A DNA stretch of 64,000 nucleotides from Chrysomallon squamiferum. Lineage: Eukaryota > Animalia > Mollusca. The stretch covers positions 5,022,001 through 5,086,000 of the forward strand of contig CM022679.1 in the NCBI GenBank assembly GCA_012295275.1. Direction: 5' to 3'. The stretch's first letter is position 1. Every line of letters begins with the position of its first letter. The notes under the pieces are model-generated. The model had not been told where the DNA came from, did not search any database, and was given only the letters and a program-made list of their open reading frames with translations. Below, in pieces: positions 2,148-63,677 of this stretch. Both the position numbers and the translations under genes were made by a program.

Positions 2148-16592
<14,445 letters not shown>

Positions 16593-17158
16593 GTCAATTA
16601 TTAATAATAGTATCTGTTGTGAAAAAAGCGCTGTATAAACAAAGTGTTTTGTGCTATGGAGCTGAAGAACTACGTCTGAACTCTATAACGCCATAGCAAT
16701 TTCGTCGTTCACTGTTAAATAAAGAACGCAGAAGCTTGCACTGTCAGCCATTTATGATTTTCGATAACACATTTTCATGACGTTGGAGCCATGACGTCAG
16801 GACAGGTTTTCACCTACATCATTAGATGTAATGTATATATATATGCAAAACTTTAATCTGAACGCAAGTTATGTGAAAAGAATGAAACTACAAAAGTTAT
16901 TAATTTTTTCTAACGATATCTCATCGTGTTGCTATGATATGGAAAATGCAGGATTAAAGAAAACGGACAAATTTTCCTTGACAGGGAACTGATTAAATAG
17001 AAAGAGAATTTATACATATACAAAAATAATTGAACAAAACAATTAAAAAAATGAACTGAATGAACAATAACTGAATTAATCTTAAGTTTACAGAAAGGGA
17101 AACTGAAAACATATTAAGTAAACGAATATAAACGGCCCCTGAGAGTTTATTTGCCACT
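16593..17158. promoter_or_regulatory. Putative bidirectional promoter between head-to-head TMC-A and TMC-B
   Basis: Divergent ATGs at 16592 (-) and 17159 (+). Locally CpG-containing, with a full CRE palindrome TGACGTCA at 16792-16799 and a half site TGACGT at 16778. Confidence 0.55.
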
Positions 17159-26773
<9,615 letters not shown>

Positions 26774-28423: not shown

Positions 28424-29246
28424 TTAATTTGCTTTGATCCTTTGGCATCTTGCTCGCGTTTGCATTCAAAATAAAAATTATAAAATAATGGTTTAAAAAG
28501 AAACTCATGGGGATACGGCTCTAAATCTTTAGACGTTTAAGTAGTGGATTACTACATTTCTAACATAAAATTAAAAGTCAGATTTGTAGGTGTGTGTGTG
28601 TGGGGGGATCTCTTTTCCTTTCTCTCAGTTTTGTTTGTTTCTTTTTTTAACACTCACCTGTAATCTTTCTTTGGATGCTAAGTTTTTCAAGAGAGCACCC
28701 CCATATGCCCAGTATCCCCCACAACAAGACGGAAATACGTCAGCCGATAAATTTGCTGTATTTGCTAAGATTACGAAACCGTACATAATATTAAACATAA
28801 AAGTAATTGGTGAATTTCTTGTTTTTTTCTTTCTTTCTTTCTTCTTGTTTGCTTCTTGTGTTGTTTTATTTGTCACTGTGTTTTCTTTAACTGTTACTTA
28901 TTATTTTAAAATAAATATTTGCATTAAATTTTGCACATTTTGCACTGTTTATTACTTAGTCATAACTAAATAACTAGAAAACAGTGTAAGAATTAAACTC
29001 TTGATATCAAACAAAATAAAAACAAAGAAAACCCACGTAACTTCTATATTATTTTATCATCGAACAATATCAAGAAAATTTTGACATTATCTTGATTATA
29101 GAAATATTTTTAAATTGATATTCTTAAACGGAATCACAATAAAAATAAATTTATACACATATCAGAGAATGATAATGTTACAGAAGATTTTAACGCGTTA
29201 AAGTTTCAACGCAAAAAACACAGTTCCTTGTTGGCGTAGTTGTGTC

Positions 29247-29301
29247 TATATAAGGACGACAAAAATGGAATGACGTAAGCCTGAGGGTTCTTTTTATAAA
29301 A
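29247..29301 (+). promoter_or_regulatory. TATA-box promoter with ATF/CRE-like site, hairpin unit 1
   Basis: TATATAAG 29247-29254, TGACGTAA 29271-29278, TATAAAA 29295-29301. All are conserved in copy 2 (34962, 34986, 35010). Confidence 0.55.
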
Positions 29302-29687
29302 CAATTGAACATCCACTACCCCGTTGGTTTATATCCGGGATGTGGAAAAACGGGACGCTGATTAAACAGCAAATCTCAAGGAGTGTTTCTTTGTTCACTG
29401 GATTCTGCATCCTGCATCTTGGTGCTGTGTTTGGTTGGAAATCGTCTTCAAAACTGATTGTTGATGATCCGTTCCGAGGTTCATTACTACGGTTAGAGGT
29501 CGGGACACCCCGAACTTTCCAGAACGTGGCCGAAGGGAGGATCTTCTGCAATCAAAAGCGAAGACGACTCCAGCATTCTGCAGCTCTCAACGATGACAGG
29601 ATGAAATCCAGAGACCGAGAGAAACAAAAAATAAATAAAATAAAAATATCCCCACCCCAAAACCCCGGCCCTTTTCAGGGCCACCAA
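29280..29687 (+). ncRNA. Candidate long-hairpin RNA gene 1 ending in a histone-type 3' stem-loop
   Basis: Rod-like foldback 29384-29626 around an axis at ~29506 (TGTTTCT/AGAAACA, CTGGATT/AATCCAG, CATCCTG/CAGGATG, TCGTCTTC/GAAGACGA, TGATTG/CAATCA, GATCC/GGATC, TCGGG-acac-CCCGA), followed by GGCCCTTTTCAGGGCC-ACCA. Transcription is inferred, not shown. Confidence 0.55.
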
Positions 29688-29699
29688 ATCTTAAGAAAA
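29667..29699 (+). terminator. Replication-dependent histone mRNA 3' stem-loop plus purine-rich downstream element
   Basis: AAAACCCC-GGCCCT-TTTC-AGGGCC-ACCA matches the SLBP-binding consensus (6-bp stem, UUUC loop, AC-rich flanks). AAGAAAA lies ~10 nt downstream. Confidence 0.85.
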
Positions 29700-31149
29700 C
29701 GTATTTTCAAACAACTGCTGTTAAATAGTAATAAAATAAAAAGAATAATAATCTGTTTATGATAATAAAATTAATTATGCTACATAAACAAACAAATAAA
29801 TAAAATAAAATGAATGATAATTCGTACTAATAATACCTAATAATAACAATGTCAAATTTCATAAGCTAAATATGATTTAATTAGAACAGTTTATGATAAA
29901 TGTAACATTCAAATATACTATTTACTGAAATTAAATAAATTACTCGTATGTAAATAAAAAAAAAAAATAATAAAAAAAAAAAAAAAATAAATTATATTAC
30001 TGAATAAAATTAGTTATTTATGATATTTTTGTCGTTTTCTTTTACAGAAGCAATAGGAATGAAAAAGAAACATGAACTGCTTTCTTCTTTTCTTTTATTC
30101 TTTCTTTGACTGTTTTTTTTTTGTTGTTGTTTATTTTGTGGCGGTTTTGTGGGTTTTTTGATAGATAGATGGGACTGATGTAAATTGTTCATTATTCGAA
30201 TTAGTATGCACACTTCAAATTAAAAAACACTTCACTTAAAAAACTTGTCTGTTGATATCTTGATGAATTTGAAATAACCAGTTTAAATAATAATAGTAAC
30301 AACAACAATAATAATAATAATAAATTATTTAAAACAAAAGTATTAATCTGGATCTATTTGTTTCCTATTGTTTTTTCATCACATGTAAAACTAAATTTTG
30401 TAGTAAATGATACAGACTGAGTAAGGTTTAGAAAACGCGTCACTGTTTTGAATGATTACGTCACAAATTCATTAGCTTAATGCAACCGTCAAGTGGTTGT
30501 GCTAGTGTGTGCTTTGTTTATTTGTTTTTCTATTTACAGTTTCAATATATGCACAAAAGGTATGTACATTTCATATTCCAGATTCTTAATGATATATAAG
30601 GCATCTTAAAACATTGCTAAAAAAACCAGCATTGATTTTAAAATCTATATTAAATATGCAGTCAGTTATAAATTTTGTTTCAACCTGGTGTTTTTTTAAT
30701 TGGCGTCAAGGAAATATTGACATCATGCGGATAAAAATATAAATACTGAAAACAGAAACATATAACAAATATACACATATATCTGACATAAAGTATTATT
30801 ACGGTACCACATTCTAAAACTGTAAAGTTTCGAAGACAAAAACACAACTCCATCACGGATGGCGACGTCACGAGAACGTTTGCCGCTTGTTTACTAATTA
30901 CGTCACATGTTTGTGCTTCTATGGTCAATTCATCGGCGTGTATATAAGACAGAACTGTTAGCCAGGCAATTTAGATTCCCGTGCCCACATCTGTGCCTTG
31001 AGAAGCCCCTCAGATGAATGAGAAAATGTATATCCTGTTTCTTTGAACGTCAAATACTGGCGGCTGAAGTGGCAGACCTGAGAAACCTCGAAAGAATGAG
31101 AAAATGTAATTCTTTGTTCTCAAGTACTGGCGACTCGAGAGACACACCT

Positions 31150-32150
31150 AAAGAAGCTGAAGATTCCGGTGCGCCTAGCAAAGATAATATACGAACCGGT
31201 GGATGAATCCTCGGCAGACTTACACTGGCGACTTAAACTGAAGAAACGAAGCTGAAGATTCCGGTACGCCTAGGCAAAGATAATATACACACCGGTGGAT
31301 GAACCCTCGGCAGACCTACATTGCAGGCTTAAACTGAAGAAACGATGCTGAACATTCCGGTGCGCATAGTAAGGCCTATATGCGCACCGGAATGTTCAGT
31401 TTTGTTTCTTCAATTTAAGCCTCCAATGTAGTCTCCCGAAGATTCATCCATCGGTGTGTACATTATCAATGCGCACCGGTGGATGAACCCTCGGCAGACT
31501 TACATTGGAGGCTTAAATTGAACAAACGAAGCTGAACATTCCTGTGCGCATAGTAAGGCCTATATGCGCACCGGAATGTTCAGTTTTGTTTGTTCAGTCT
31601 AAGTCTCCAGTGTAGTCTCCCGAGGGTTCATCCATCGGTGTGCGCACTGGAATCTTCAGCTTTGTTTCTTCATTCTAAGCCTCCAGTGTAGTCTCCCGAG
31701 GGTTCATCCATCGGCGCATATTATCTATCCGGACAGGTGAATGAGCCCTCGGCTGGAGGCTGAAGTTGAAGAAACGAAGCTGAAGATTCCGATGAATGAA
31801 CCCACGGCAGACATTCATTGGAGACTGAAGTTGAAGAAACGAAGCTGAAGATTCCGGTGAATGAACCCACGGCAGACATTCATTGGAGACTTAGATCGTA
31901 GAAATGAGGCTGAAGATTCCGGTGCGCATAGCAAAGATAATATGCGCACCGGCGGATGAACCCACGGCAGACATTCATTGGAGGCTGAAGTTGAAGAAAC
32001 GAAGCTGAAGATTCCGGTGAATGAACCCACGGCAGACATTCATTGGAGACTTAAGTTGAAGAAACGAGGCTGAAGATTCCGGTGAGCGTAGCAAAGATAA
32101 TATACACACCGGCGGATGAACCCTCGGCGGACATACACTGGAGGCTGAGA
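31150..32150. repeat. Array of ~61/88-bp units in direct and inverted orientation (two ~180-nt hairpins at 31279-31467 and 31471-31643)
   Basis: Unit core GAAGAAACGAAGCTGAAGATTCCGGTG(..)ATGAACCC.CGGCAGAC.T.CA.TGGAG. Perfect 21-bp inverted repeat CTGAACATTCCGGTGCGCATA (31348-31368) / TATGCGCACCGGAATGTTCAG (31379-31399). Confidence 0.92.
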
Positions 32151-32189
32151 AAACAACAAAGAGTCGAACTCTTCAAGAAGATATTTGTT

Positions 32190-32925
32190 TATCTGTGGGG
32201 AGACGGAGAAGATGTAGCGGAAAACTGGTAAAGCACTAGCAACAACCCAGGAACTGTGAAACACTCCAAAAAGACATTCGTGCCAAAGGGAGAGACAGTT
32301 TTCACCAGCATCAACGATGCTTCAACAGTCAAAATATTTGCCACTGCATCCACTTCGTCTGTGGGGAGACGGAGAAGATGCAGCGGAAAAGTGGAAAAGC
32401 ACTAGCAACAACCCAGGAACTGTGAAAAACTCCAAAAAGACATTCGTGCCAAAGGGAGAGACAGTTTTCACCAGCATCAACGATGCTTCAACAGTCAAAA
32501 TATGTGCAGGCCACTGCATCCACTTCGTCTGTGGGGAGACGGAGAAGATGCAGCGGAAAAGTGGAAAAGCACTAGCAACAACCCAGGAACTGTGAAAAAC
32601 TCCAAAAAGACATTAGCGCCAAAGGGAGAGACAGTTTTCACCAGCATCAACTATGTCCATATGCAGGACATTGCTTCCAGTTTGTCAGTGGGGAGACAGA
32701 GAAGATACAGATAAACAGTGGCAAGGCACTAGCAACAGCCCGTGAATTGTGAAACACTCCAGAAAGATATGTTACACCAGAGGGGGAGACAGTTTTCAGC
32801 ACCATGAACGATTCTTCAACAGTCAGTGTCCATATGCAGGACATTGCTTCCAGTTTGTCAGTGGGGAGACAGAGGAGATATAGATGAAATGGGTGAAGGC
32901 ATAGCAAGAAACCTCTAATTGTGAA
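32190..32925 (+). repeat. ~170-bp tandem repeat, ~4.3 copies
   Basis: GTGGGGAGAC.GAGAAGAT recurs at ~32195, 32361, 32531, 32688 and 32861. Unit lengths (~158-171) are mostly not multiples of 3. Confidence 0.92.
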
Positions 32926-33889
32926 ATTGTTAATGAACATTAAATATAATATCGCGATGAACATTGTAAAATTTCGCGAATTTAAATTGTAATGGAAATT
33001 AAAAATCTGTATAATAAAATAATTATATAAAATGCATTTTATTTGTTATTATTTTATTTATTTATTTATTAATTATATATTTCTTTAAATTTTACTTTTT
33101 CTTTTGTTACATATCTAGAGATGATTCATGGAATATCGCTGTTTATATTTAATAAGTTTATTTTTAAAGATCCAATTCTGCAAGGAAAACAGTGGAACTA
33201 TAATTAATTCTTGCATACATACATACATACATATAAATCTTCAATATATATAGTTTACGGAGCAAGAAATACAGAGATTACCACTTAACAATTATTGGTT
33301 TATGGAGTATTTTGATATAAAACAAAAAACTTAGAAAAAGTAAAATATATATTAATTACATTTGTCAGTGTAGTTGACAGAAATTATTAGTGGGTGTGAC
33401 ACTGTAACTTTGACTGTTGTTTTTTTTCTTCTTTTTTAATTCCTCATTAAATGGTACTTTAGGTTACTCAACTTTCGTTAACAGCTAATTTGTTAATTAA
33501 ATTTATTCAAAATAAATAAATGAATATGTTTATAATTACATATTCTGTATTAGTCCTTGTTGAGTATACAGTCTTTGTTAAGCAGAAATCATATTTTATT
33601 GATACTGTAATATGATCCAAGGTACATAAATATATTGTTATTCACTGGTTGCATGCATATATATCAAGTAATAAGTGGTATTTCTCAAATCACACAAGTG
33701 GTGGAGTAATTATATTCTGTTACTGGCTGGCAACATTTAGAAAGTTCACACACTCTGATTAGCTCCTTTCTGTCTCTTACGAATAGCTCGTATTGAAATG
33801 TATCTATTTGTTTTTTAGTACGAATGTATGTACGTATGCATATGTGTATGTATTTAGGTAAGAATATTCTCTGTATTATGTACATCTAT

Positions 33890-33985
33890 TTAGATCCTGA
33901 ACAAGGACAATATCCAGGAACATGTAAACTGAATTGGCACAGGATAACATCAGAATCCGCTCACGAGACTCGAACCTGTGGAGAA
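33890..33985 (-). mobile_element. Possible tRNA-SINE fragment
   Basis: B-box GGTTCGAGTC on the minus strand (GACTCGAACC at ~33967-33976) in a short GC-richer patch. Confidence 0.25.
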
Positions 33986-34994
33986 TGAAATCAGTGTCAC
34001 AAAAGGTTTAAAGTGAAAGTATCAGCCGTGGTTCTGTTGTCCCATGTCAAAAGATCTCTTGGCACATTCTGACAGTTTCACATCAACCAATGTTCCTGTA
34101 AGTTATTCAAGGAAAGGAAGGTGAGAAAGAAGAAAAGAAAGTAGAAATAAAACTAATAAAGATAAAAACAAGGAAAGAATAAGGAACTAGAAGTAAAATA
34201 AATAGAAAAATTGAGAATCAACGTATCAAGTAAAAATGTTTAATCAGAAAATAACAATGTTTATATGTATGTATGTATGTATGTATGTCTATGTATGTAT
34301 TTATGCTTTCTTCTGTCGTTCATGAATAAAGGAGATATCAAACGTACAGAGTATGCATCAAAATGTTTGACGATAAGACCCCCCTTATCCCCAGCTTTCC
34401 CCCGCCACCTAACAAAAGTAAATATGATTACGTCAGACCCTAAATTCGCTGGATTTACTAACATTACAGAACCGTGCACAAATTAAAAACAAAATTACAT
34501 TTTTTTTGCACTTTAATTCTTCTTCTTCTTAGTTTTTTTTTTTCTTGTCTCGTTCTTCTTTAATAATTAATTATTATTTTTGAATCAATGTATTCATTGA
34601 ACAATTCACATTTTATACTGTTTATTACTTAGTCGTAACTAAATAACTAGAAAACACTGTCAGAAGTGAACTGGTTGTATTAAACAGAATAAAAACAAAG
34701 AAAACCACTATAAATTCTGTATTATTTTATCTTTCTTTGAATAATATCTCGAAAGTTTCGACATTATCTTGATTACAGAAATATTTTTATAATGTATTCT
34801 TAAACAGAATCACATCAAAAATACTTATATACACATATCAGAGAATGATAATATTACAGAAGATTTTAACGCGAAAAAACTTGAACGGAAAAAAACACAA
34901 GTCCTTGTTGTCGACGCCATTGCTAAACTCAAGGTGACTTCTTTTACGTCCGCTTTCTGTCTATATAAGGACGACAAAAATGGAATGACGTAAG

Positions 34995-35402
34995 CCTGAG
35001 GGTTCTTTTTATAAAACAATTGAACATCCACTACCCCGTCGATTTATATCCGGGATGTGGAAAAACAAGACGCTGACTAAACAGCTAATCTCCAGGAGTG
35101 TTTCTTTGTTCACTGGATCCTGCATCCTGCATCTTGGTGCTGTGTTTGGTTGGAAATCGTCTTCAAAACTGATTGTTGATGATCCACTCCGGGGTTCATT
35201 ACTACGGTTAGAGGTCGGGACACCCCGAACTTTCCAGAACGTGGCCGAAGGGAGGATCTTCTGCAATCAAAAGCGAAAACGACTCAAGCATTCTGCAGCT
35301 CTCAACGATGTCAGGATGGAATCCAGTGACCAAATGAAACAAAAAATAAATAAAACAAAAATATTCCCACCCCAAAACCCCGGCCCTTTTCAGGGCCACC
35401 AA
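34995..35402 (+). ncRNA. Candidate long-hairpin RNA gene 2 ending in a histone-type 3' stem-loop
   Basis: Foldback 35099-35341 (TCACTGGAT/ATCCAGTGA, CATCCTG/CAGGATG, TGATTG/CAATCA, TCGGG/CCCGA) with the same TATA/CRE promoter and stem-loop at 35382-35397. Confidence 0.55.
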
Positions 35403-35415
35403 ATCTTAAGAAAGT
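35382..35415 (+). terminator. Histone mRNA 3' stem-loop plus downstream element (copy 2)
   Basis: GGCCCTTTTCAGGGCC-ACCA followed by TAAGAAAGT, which is close to the invertebrate HDE consensus CAAGAAAGA. Confidence 0.85.
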
Positions 35416-35637
35416 GTCTTTTCATGCAATTGCTAATCCAGTGTAATCATAGTTAAATAATAATAATAAAAATAAAATAATAAATAATAAAATATTTATG
35501 ATAAAAAAATATTACTTCTACTAATAGTTATAATAACAAATAATATAGTTAGAATAATAAAGATAATTATACTACTAAATAAAGAAAGAAATAATAGTAA
35601 ATATTACGTTTTAATAATAATAATAATAATAATAATA

Positions 35638-40811: not shown

Positions 40812-55411
<14,600 letters not shown>

Positions 55412-57855: not shown

Positions 57856-59039
57856 CTGAATTGCAGGTATGAAAAATATAATTATTTACGTAATTCACAA
57901 ATATAATTACAATTCTCGTAGATCACTGTTTACATGGGTCACTGACAGTTCCGAAAGAAAGACAAACTTAAAAACACGCACATTATTTTTTTAAATATAT
58001 TTTCCGTATGTTTATCGTTTCTGATGAAAGTTTAAGTAGTTTTGTCTTGGCCTGTTCTGCACAAACTTGAAAATTTGAAAATTCACAAGATTTTGTCTCC
58101 TTTCTTTCTTTTCCCTGGGTTGTTTTTTCTTCTTCTAATTTGTAATATAGAAATGGTAGGTGAATAATACAAAAATCTGCAGCTTTTCGTACTTGTGTCG
58201 TATATTTAAATTTTCAGACGAAACTCTGATGAGGTTAAAACTTTCCCCAGTATTTTCCTTTATCTTATATCATCATAAAGCTAGTTTGTCCTAATATGAA
58301 ATCTAATGCAGGTTTTGTCATATGCTGTCAGTTTCCTATACTAAAACACTGTTTTATTTCCATACAGCAAATGAAGTATTCCTGTCCTGTACTACCATCT
58401 GTTTTACTCTCTGTTTTTGTGTACCACACGTAGTCAGTCAGTTCTCACATGCACATTCTTACATCGTTTAGTCTGCTCTCTGTATCAGTACGACAACGAC
58501 ACCTTTACGCATGACATTTCTCCACTAGTCCACATTTCCTATCACAGAAGAAAAATTTAATTGCACGTTAATTTCTACGCAAATCTCTTCTCGCTCTGTC
58601 TGTTTCCGTATCACATGAACCTTTTTGCAGTGTCGCTTATCACCGACGCACTCAAAAAAATTATCGCTTGATTTTTTTTTTTCCACCACGTAGAGACAAC
58701 GTTACCAATGAGTTTGTGAGTACGTGTTTTACTGTTTACTCCTTGTTTTACTGTTTACTCTTCGCATACGACATGCTGCTCGAATTTCTATTCTCTCTCT
58801 CGGAAACAAACACTACTTGTGTTTTAGTGTGATTACGGTCGCGTAGTCTAGTTATAAATAACTAAAAGGGTGTTGTAAAGTGTTTGTTACATGAAGATAA
58901 ACTATACTAAAGAGTAATGTACTGGTGTAAACAGTGCTGTGGGTCCATGTATGTATAGAAAAGAGGACTGTATATATATATAGAGAGAGAGTATGTAACA
59001 ATGCTTAAATACAGTCTGTAATAATATATAAATACATAC

Positions 59040-61637: not shown

Positions 61638-61884
61638 AATCCCTTATTCGTATCGCCACGTGAAGTATTTTAAACTTAATTTATCCGTTGGAAGTACGTT
61701 CCATATGACTTCGGATGAGTAAAATTAGTTTATTACATATAATTATTAGTATTAGCACGATATATTCTTAATAAGTACTACGCAATAGAGTAATGAACAT
61801 ACACTTACAACAAAACAATAATATGCAAGTCAAAATAAAAACCAAACACCCATTACAACAAAAAATAAAATAAAATAAAATAAA

Positions 61885-61979
<95 letters not shown>

Positions 61980-63677
61980 TAAAAAACAACCCCCCAAAAA
62001 AAAAAAAAAAAAACAAAACATGAACAAAAAAAACCTCAACGAAAAAAAACTGCATCATTTTAAAAATTATAACCGGGCAGTTTTTTAAACATATTTATGT
62101 ATGTGTGTGTGCGTCTGTGTGTATGTCAGTATATAGATATATAAAATAATAAAATGAATGAAAGTAAAAATAAAAATTCAAATATCAAAGTAAATGTGTA
62201 AAAATTATAAAAAAACCCCAAAACAACAACAAAACAAATATAAATGAATAAATAAAAAAAATAATAAATAAAAAACATAAACAAAACAAAAAACAAAACA
62301 AAAATAAATAAATATATAGATAAATAATAAATAAATAAAAAACATAAACAAAACAAAACAACAAACAAAACAAAACAAAACAAAACAAAACAAACAAAAC
62401 AAACAAAACAAAACAAAACAAAACAAAACAAAACAAAACAAAACAAAACAAAACAAAACAATCAAACAAATAAATAAATAAACTAATTAATAAATAAACT
62501 GACACAATTACTACTGGTGCGTAAAGAAGATTTATCGCCCGAGTTGAGATCTCGCGGTTGAAGATTTTTATTGGTTTCTTCGTGGGAGAGATAAAACCCA
62601 GTGATCTGACATCAGCGCTTTTCAAACCACTCATTTCTGAACCACTCATTTCTATAATGTTCTCATGTGTCTTACGGAGCCTAATTAGGCTAGATGACGA
62701 CATTATTTTTCTACGAATGATGTGTTATAACATGTTTTTTTCAAGCATGTGATACGTTAATTAATAATACAAATGTTTCATTTCGTTCCTAATTAAGTTT
62801 AGAATTAGTAATGAGTAGTTATTTCATTAATACAGTGTTTGTTATGTGATTGTTTGGTTTTTTTTTTTTTTGTGTTGTTGTTTTTGTGTGAGAGAAAGTT
62901 GGAGATAGAAAGAAAGAGAGAGAAAAAGGTCTAATGTGTTATGAAAATGATATATAATATGACCATATACACATATAAAGATTGTTTTTTGAAAACTGAT
63001 TTCATTGAATTATTTCTTAAGAAATTCCTCTTAGCTTTAAAAAAAAAAAAAAAAAATTAAGAGAATGAGAAAAAGGTCTAATGTGTTATGAAAATGATAT
63101 ATAATACGAATATCGCTTTATTTTGAATTGTATGTCCATACACATGATCAAAAATAATCTATAAACATAATATTAAAATAACAACAACAACAACAAAAAT
63201 AATTTACAATTAAAATGTGAATCAGTGACGCAGTTCTGATATAAATAGAAAAACGTGACAATAACAACAGTGCTCGGTTGATCGTTTTGTCTTGGGTTCT
63301 GTTTTTTGTTTTTTTTTTTTCTTTTTTTTTTCGCAGTTTTACAATACATTATAGAACGCGTCACTACTTATCTGTATAAGTATATAATTTCTTAAAGGGC
63401 TGGCAGATCGAAATACGTGAACATTAATGTATCAATTATTCATACCTCTAACTAAATGTTGTTTGAAAATTAATGAGCTTCTGTTGAAATATCTTACTGT
63501 TAGTTAATCCCTTATTCGTAACCGCCAAGTGAAGTATTTTAAAATTAATTTATCCGTTGGAAGTACGTTCCATATGACTTACGACGAACAATATTAGTTT
63601 ATTACATATAATTTTATTAATATTATTGCAATACATTCTTAATAAGTACTATGAATTATAGAAATGAACACAGACAC
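61638..63677 (+). repeat. ~170-bp direct repeats (61638-61805 and 63506-63677) bracketing the candidate distal first exon
   Basis: Both copies contain AATCCCTTATTCGTA.CGCCA.GTGAAGTATTTTAAA.TTAATTTATCCGTTGGAAGTACGTTCCATATGACTT. Confidence 0.85.
62512..62703 (-). CDS. Candidate distal first coding exon of TMC-C (MSSSSLIRLRKTHENII...LLYAPV), giving a ~854-aa isoform
   Basis: 64 non-repetitive codons from an ATG with a phase-0 donor (GTA|GTAATT) compatible with the 40-nt exon at 57855. No homology evidence; it could belong to another transcript. Confidence 0.45.

Follow-up and report, generated by a model that had tools for sequence, protein, structure and literature searches.

A 64-kb stretch of AT-rich animal DNA from Chrysomallon squamiferum (hereafter the window) contains two related units on the plus strand, copy 1 (29247-29699) and copy 2 (34962-35415), that resemble a histone gene in their 3' end and a hairpin RNA gene in their body. 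Each leads from a TATA box through a leader and a bulged, rod-like foldback to a stem-loop of the histone type, and no histone is encoded in between. We tentatively interpret the units as members of a non-coding gene family transcribed by RNA polymerase II (Pol II) and likely processed by SLBP and the U7 small nuclear RNA (snRNA), with the rod acting as an intact bulged double-stranded RNA (dsRNA); this is the reading we prefer, while stopping short of calling it probable. The original prediction of Pol II non-coding hairpin genes thereby holds in part: the missing histone, the missing conserved protein and the gene-like core speak for it, whereas its small interfering RNA (siRNA) part is weak. 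It also overlooked a second TATA box, a short form that lacks the rod, and a related third gene between the copies.

Architecture of the units

Copy 1 comprises the following features:

28736-29246 (+): upstream region, 81% alike between the copies and likely regulatory; contains words that we take to be CRE-like (cAMP response element), AP-1-like and GATA-like
29247-29254 (+): TATA box TATATAAG, start predicted from spacing at ~29277
29271-29278 (+): TGACGTAA, a CRE/ATF-like word
29277-29353 (+): leader with a small hairpin at ~29310-29346, common to long and short family members
29295-29301 (+): second TATA-like box TATAAAA, putative alternative start at ~29323-29326
29340-29762 (+): 140-codon open frame across the stem-loop, probably not a gene product
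29383-29627 (+): rod-like foldback, 88 pairs, longest helix 9 bp
29628-29666 (+): A/C-rich unpaired linker with three AATAAA motifs (29630, 29634, 29639)
29667-29682 (+): histone-type stem-loop GGCCCTTTTCAGGGCC, Rfam RF00032 36.4 bits
29683-29699 (+): ACCA, predicted cut at ~29687, purine-rich AAGAAA at 29693 for putative use by U7

The corresponding features of copy 2 are:

34429-34961 (+): upstream region, from the repeat alignment
34962-34969 (+): TATA box TATATAAG
34992-35068 (+): leader with second TATA-like box (35010) and small hairpin
35055-35456 (+): 133-codon open frame across the stem-loop
35098-35342 (+): rod-like foldback, 88 pairs, longest helix 9 bp
35382-35414 (+): stem-loop, ACCA and AAGAAAG element, Rfam RF00032 33.0 bits, E 1.2e-6

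TATA box, TGACGTAA, foldback, stem-loop and AAGAAA had been placed correctly in both units by the original prediction. The duplication that it proposed is real; the repeat is larger than the two units, spanning ~1.05 kb (28736-29788 versus 34429-35509, 81% identity over 1105 columns). The TGACGTAA word, found at 34986 in copy 2, lies 24 nt ahead of the second TATA-like box, which is the more usual order. Transcription would therefore begin at either ~29277 or ~29325.

A histone-type 3' end

Both copies carry the perfect stem-loop that had been proposed (GGCCCTTTTCAGGGCC, 29667-29682 and 35382-35397), followed directly by ACCA and by a purine-rich element at a histone-like distance, AAGAAA beginning 10 nt past the stem (29693 and 35408). 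A loose stem-loop pattern matches only these two places on both strands of the window. The score of copy 1 against the Rfam Histone3 model exceeds the gathering score of 34, that of copy 2 falls just below it. A 6-bp stem, a 4-nt loop, G-C at stem position 2 and U at loop position 3, the features named as diagnostic in bioRxiv 10.64898/2026.10.14.759114, are all present, and the predicted full-length RNA keeps the stem-loop folded (pairing probability 0.83-1.0). Across stem-loop and downstream element 1 of 33 positions differs between the copies, and the next 90 nt are 72% alike.

As anticipated, no histone frame lies upstream: the two long frames match 0 Pfam families, and 14 histone peptide motifs give four matches in the window, none of them within 26-40 kb. 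The only long frame has no stop codon 25-60 nt 5' of the stem-loop, unlike histone genes. The linker, described before as A-rich, is indeed rich in A and C, but the five bases directly 5' of the stem read ACCCC. Two AATAAA motifs are found in the linker of copy 2, and further ones lie downstream of both stem-loops.

In histone genes SLBP is described as binding the stem-loop, U7 as pairing with the downstream element and CPSF73 as cutting five bases past the stem (bioRxiv 10.64898/2026.10.14.759114). Histone messages are reported to stand alone among known cellular mRNAs in having no poly(A) tail (PMC4604434), and bivalve histone genes to carry the same stem-loop and purine-rich element (PMC6210712). 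A non-histone role has been reported for U7, namely repression of LTR12 transcription through motifs like the histone downstream element (HDE) rather than 3' cutting (PMC11417402); passages of a histone review (PMC13525598) contain nothing on non-histone stem-loops.

The stem-loop could also be an unused relic of a captured histone end, the units being transcribed hairpin genes that are polyadenylated at AATAAA. Such motifs occur in both linkers and beyond, the bases before the stem are C-rich, the related middle gene has no stem-loop, and a contig of another family member from RNA library X9 runs 45 nt past the stem-loop. According to PMC1924863, an AATAAA 3' of a histone hairpin is common and need not be used. 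The near-identity of stem-loop and element next to a diverged 90-nt flank, together with the retention of the stem-loop in short-form members that have no linker, makes a relic very improbable in our view.

The rod-like foldback

The ~245-nt imperfect foldback of the original prediction is confirmed: the rod of copy 1 forms 88 pairs on one axis (pair sums 59008-59013). The fold is real; the whole-unit fold reaches z -6.7 in copy 1 and -4.8 in copy 2, and 0 of 100 shuffles is as good in either case, in answer to the folding comparison that had been suggested. The rod is composed of 20-23 helices, none longer than 9 bp, and its arms are ~64% alike with 15 gap columns, which leaves it well short of a perfect duplex. 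The unit body matches no Rfam family. By eye the rod seemed to resemble the 166-nt and 96-nt repeats of the middle gene, an impression that was discarded (best z 1.0 in 18 comparisons).

The original prediction saw the rod as a precursor that Drosha or Dicer would cut into silencing RNAs of 21-23 nt. Consistent with this are its unpaired flanks, a best 22-nt window with 20.4 of 22 bases paired (at 29408), and the related middle gene with long clean stems like those of fly hairpin RNA. For molluscs, however, the absence of Dicer-2, of an siRNA Argonaute and of any endo-siRNA signature has been reported (PMC11114477), and PMC12479628 likewise reports this loss while allowing for rare exceptions. 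Given this reported loss and the bulged rod with its short helices, the endo-siRNA version is weak. In the Rfam scan no microRNA family matches the rod, and no target of it was matched in the 64-kb window. We regard a small-RNA precursor as improbable. Matches to microRNA families below the gathering score fall on the middle hairpin or on microsatellites and reflect shape only; they were rejected.

Conservation and a multi-copy family

Identity between the copies is uneven. It amounts to 400/492 (81.3%) upstream, 433/455 (95.2%) in the core from TATA box to downstream element and 65/90 (72%) thereafter; divergence is four times lower in the core than upstream (Fisher p 3e-11). Judged by this profile, the core behaves like a constrained or homogenised gene rather than a uniformly decaying transposon: selection or gene conversion acting on the core would give such a profile, and even decay of two long terminal repeats (LTRs) would not.

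Parts of the stretch are contained in 9 of 11 sequencing runs from three studies, of which X1, X2, X4, X8 and X9 were compared and X3, X5-X7, X10 and X11 left out. The data are contigs with one depth figure each, which makes all copy numbers rough; contigs drop rare variants and cannot show starts, ends or absence. The window's own flank is found at ~99% identity in X1 (4 other letters in 414, depth 8.45) and with 1 other letter in 274 in X4 (depth 41.6). Single core contigs reach depths of 65.9 in X1 and 416.7 in X4, roughly 7.8 and 10 times the flank. Taking one copy as a depth of 75.8 in X2, the rod contig corresponds to 10 copies, a second leader contig to 11 and the shared leader start to 22. 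Contig depth thus suggests about 10 rod-bearing copies (8-10 by the above figures), and the family, which extends beyond the two units, has about 20 members over two length classes, both estimates being rough. Against the X1 majority, the two window copies show 7 and 6 differences over 311 positions.

The short form leads from 29353 of the leader directly into the same stem-loop (three records in X2, one in X4). In X9, one contig passes directly from the leader into a variant stem-loop, and in a second one stem-loop and downstream element are preceded by a different sequence. The stem-loop is therefore kept in diverged members. Since the short form does without the rod, the common core of the family consists of promoter, leader and stem-loop, and by sequence comparison the rod is an optional module of ~315 nt with linkers. 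As side observations, in one X2 member ~38 nt of the leader are duplicated in tandem (joint 29318 to 29281), and the X9 member with the other sequence 5' of its stem-loop (29666-29731) is alike in the downstream region, up to 45 nt past the stem-loop.

A selfish, non-autonomous repeat with its own promoter and a histone-type end is an unlikely but serious alternative. It would spread by duplication or retro-copying, and the rod would be an old foldback insertion into the short form with no host function. The ~20 copies in two length classes fit, as do a fold without strand preference or covariation and the upstream homology of both copies, which starts at ~28736. In X2 as in X4, two records join at 29278 and two depart from the unit at 29322, with unrelated DNA beyond, a pattern that RNA-derived fragments would produce; such records may be 5' pieces made by retro-copying, or else a promoter module in shared use. 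At 29352-29353 the most frequent letters of X4 are unlike those of X1 and X2, a soft hint at homogenisation or recent turnover that would suit a fast-changing repeat. Such a repeat does not account for the fourfold lower divergence in the core. Neither rod nor unit has a target-site duplication beyond one AT-rich 7-mer each, the units contain no hammerhead core, the Rfam scan found no ribozyme, and no frame between the copies exceeds 117 codons.

The long open frame

One frame is stop-free over the whole unit, for 137 codons in both copies (116 from ATG), and ends only downstream of the stem-loop (29762 and 35456), in line with the original statement that it has no stop before the expected cleavage site. 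In a post hoc test 0.2% and 0.6% of 3000 dinucleotide shuffles matched this. The unit might thus be a fast-evolving or decayed protein-coding gene with a histone-type end, whose 133-140-codon frame is or was translated from an RNA reading through the stem-loop to a downstream AATAAA. The rarity of such frames in the shuffles (p 0.002-0.006), an ATG 15-17 nt past the start predicted from the second TATA box, and an AATAAA after each stop (29764, 35465) can be cited for it; AATAAA, however, occurs 422 times on the plus strand.

The differences within the frame (16 non-synonymous, 3 synonymous) fit the neutral expectation (p 0.59), the C-termini are unlike between the copies, and no codon-position bias was detected. 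The short form has no such frame, and the stop expected 25-60 nt before the stem-loop is missing. An Atlas search of the frame gave no usable match (recognition 1079), and no credible homologue was found among 1.84 billion proteins. The 133-aa frame has a single match (P0007, E 1.6e-7). This is the unnamed translation of a tandem repeat, 62 aa long, and its score adds up from seven weak stretches (best BLASTP 29.6 bits); it was rejected as a homologue. With no sign of a conserved protein or of purifying selection in these comparisons, the 140-codon frame is probably not a gene product. A coding gene seems to us a poor bet, and the preferred non-coding reading leaves the stop-free frame unexplained.

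A third gene between the copies

The features of the related middle gene are:

30698-30872 (+): upstream region, homologous to the upstream regions of both copies, nhmmer E 1.6e-7
30941-30948 (+): TATA box TATATAAG
31290-31640 (+): near-perfect 351-nt hairpin of inverted 96-nt-family repeats, -256 kcal/mol, z -32
32192-32879 (+): 4.1 tandem copies of a 166-nt unit, no stem-loop after them

The upstream homology scores 24.3 bits in nhmmer (next match 3.2 bits, reversed-window control 8.6 bits). This method was chosen because in a plain alignment an AT-rich control scored almost as high (109) as the upstream region itself (111); the plain alignment was not relied on. The middle gene has no histone stem-loop and no sequence likeness to the rod, and the longest stop-free stretch in 30940-33000 is 117 codons. 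Together, the upstream homology and the 351-nt hairpin mean that the same upstream module heads two unrelated double-stranded payloads. The stretch 30400-33000 (+) as a whole is a putative TATA-led non-coding unit that looks like a fly-type hairpin RNA gene, although Dicer-2 is reported to be missing in this lineage.

Hints of expression

A 241-nt contig of RNA library X9 (depth 60.9) spans 29322-29562 with 6 other letters, and RNA library X8 has a 390-nt contig (depth 3.9) over the unit, which continues on the upstream side for 53 nt beyond 29235. The X9 contig is a hint of transcription, not proof. Its 6 other letters are those of the DNA runs, so that editing is not seen at consensus level, where rare variants are dropped. 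We give no weight to its start at 29322, 27 nt past the second TATA box, to the low X9 depth in the promoter bins (0-0.35) and the unique upstream flank (0-2.6), which are deepest in the DNA runs, a contrast that RNA in X9 would explain better than DNA, or to the lack of X9 cover over 29563-29665.

Weighing the proposed processed non-coding gene

Several observations count against the reading that we prefer. Apart from the stop-free frame, AATAAA motifs stand 28-37 nt before the stem and more follow after it, and the long form has CCCC directly 5' of the stem. Histone messages are usually A-rich just 5' of the stem. The minus strand folds equally strongly (z -5.5 and -7.0) and the G-U pairs have no clear plus-strand preference (8:3 and 5:5), as would be expected of a DNA foldback. 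The 12 rod differences between the copies include no clean compensatory change. Unpaired positions are hit more often (6 of 68, against 6 of 177 paired), though not significantly (p 0.10), and the differences give no evidence of selection on the rod fold. The X8 contig passes the TATA box upstream, hence DNA may be present in the RNA libraries; a single study supplied both RNA runs, and the contigs fix no RNA start, end, strand or level. The family may be young, as no second species was seen. In human cells, SLBP is reported to cross-link to histone messages only (PMC4604434).

Under the processed non-coding reading, Pol II would start ~30 nt past one of the two TATA boxes (29277 or ~29325), SLBP would bind the stem-loop and U7 snRNA would pair with AAGAAA(A/G), whereupon CPSF73 would cut ~5 nt past the stem (29687 and 35402). 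The long form would yield a capped, tail-less RNA of ~365-410 nt with a turnover like that of histone messages, the short form a product of ~100 nt or less. In the weakest step, the rod would serve as an intact bulged duplex that binds dsRNA proteins (ADAR, innate sensors) as a decoy or scaffold. We see it as a whole rather than as an siRNA precursor because of the helix lengths and the reported loss of Dicer-2 in molluscs. Short imperfect duplexes inhibit dsRNA sensors.

A further-reaching claim, possible but doubtful in our judgement, is that of a class of animal non-coding RNA genes expressed by the histone route. Promoter, leader and SLBP/U7 end would form an interchangeable cassette whose product is either a minimal RNA that binds SLBP or a bulged double-stranded rod. 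If true, this cassette would link dsRNA signalling, or the titration of SLBP, with S phase or with the oocyte in a lineage that has lost the siRNA pathway. SLBP/U7 finishing is held to be exclusive to histone messages; a conserved, multi-copy, non-coding RNA family with the full signal would widen the pathway, and would reveal the role of long hairpin genes in molluscs without Dicer-2.

Comparison with known genes and elements

With replication-dependent histone genes the units share the TATA promoter, the lack of intron signs, the multi-copy state, the 16-nt stem-loop, ACCA, the purine-rich element 10 nt downstream and an AATAAA further on. They differ in that the 245-nt rod, or nothing, replaces the coding region, in the missing stop before the stem-loop and in the C-rich 5' flank of the long form. 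In families of snRNA genes, too, the core is conserved while the flanks have diverged, and short 5' fragments occur in other places. VA-I, EBER and viroid-like rods are short imperfect duplexes that resemble the rod (~72% of bases paired), and EBER genes have an ATF-like word and a TATA box upstream, as the units do. Unlike viral decoy RNAs and viroids, the units are host chromosomal genes with a Pol II-type end and no ribozyme; two scans of viral contigs gave 0 matches to the unit.

Like the hairpin RNA (hpRNA) genes of Drosophila, described as discrete, clustered, multi-copy units with an inverted-repeat body (PMC10317233), the units are clustered and fold back on themselves. It is the middle gene that closely resembles an hpRNA gene, including the long inverted-repeat duplex; the rod is much more bulged than an hpRNA duplex. 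Drosophila hpRNAs are reported as capped, polyadenylated and Dcr-2-dependent (PMC10317233), whereas the units have a histone-type end. MALAT1 and MEN-beta are described as Pol II non-coding RNAs without poly(A) that are cut by RNase P (PMC3188798); the units are predicted to be tail-less likewise, but their end signal is the histone stem-loop with HDE.

Several classes of elements were considered. For a miniature inverted-repeat transposable element (MITE), the arms of the rod are too little alike and no flank is duplicated; the copy number is ~8-10, and the long rod contigs, among those listed, begin in the leader. Neither unit has the CTGANGA core expected of a Penelope-like pseudo-LTR (pLTR) or retrozyme, and no ribozyme is among the 16 Rfam matches up to E 5. 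An LTR retrotransposon does not fit the uneven identity (81/95/72%) or the 117-codon limit on stop-free stretches in 30940-33000. By the tests run, the unit is neither a histone gene or MITE nor an LTR pair or element with a hammerhead; neither the MITE nor the histone pseudogene that the original prediction had named as outcomes to its disadvantage was found. Spliced-leader RNA, 7SK, signal recognition particle (SRP) RNA, telomerase RNA, U7 and a Helitron end were discarded, with no Rfam match and no fitting motif by eye. The search of prokaryote genomes gave 0 matches, and the single metagenome match (L001) is a chance likeness to a bacterial terminator with only 23 shared bases. In the literature searched, mostly outside subscription journals, we found no description of non-coding genes that end in a histone stem-loop, in agreement with the earlier remark that no such class was known.

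Genomic neighbourhood

The window also contains three tandem TMC7-like (transmembrane channel-like) genes at 3100-16600 (-), 17160-25600 (+) and 40815-55350 (-). Of these, the third most resembles TMC7 of the vent snail Gigantopelta aegis: its exon 47842-48093 is 77% identical to that protein and 48-56% identical to abalone proteins (6 matches among 116 candidates), which points to a gastropod host, probably from the family of Gigantopelta. As tblastn gives no TMC exon match between 25.6 and 40.8 kb, the units sit between two convergent genes; the last exons of the plus-strand gene were not located. Three stretches that are mutually 76-83% alike (6372-6526, 23192-23345 and 44025-44146) fall on one conserved TMC exon of the three paralogues. 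A tRNA-Ser(AGA) gene (53675-53756, +) apparently lies within an intron of the third TMC7-like gene. The GC-richer stretch 10127-11156 has broken frames that, by eye, we take to resemble a transposase fragment of the hAT/zBED type; Pfam gave no match for 10194-10523 within it. Finally, a direct repeat of ~165 nt (86% identical) occurs at 61638-61799 and 63506-63670.

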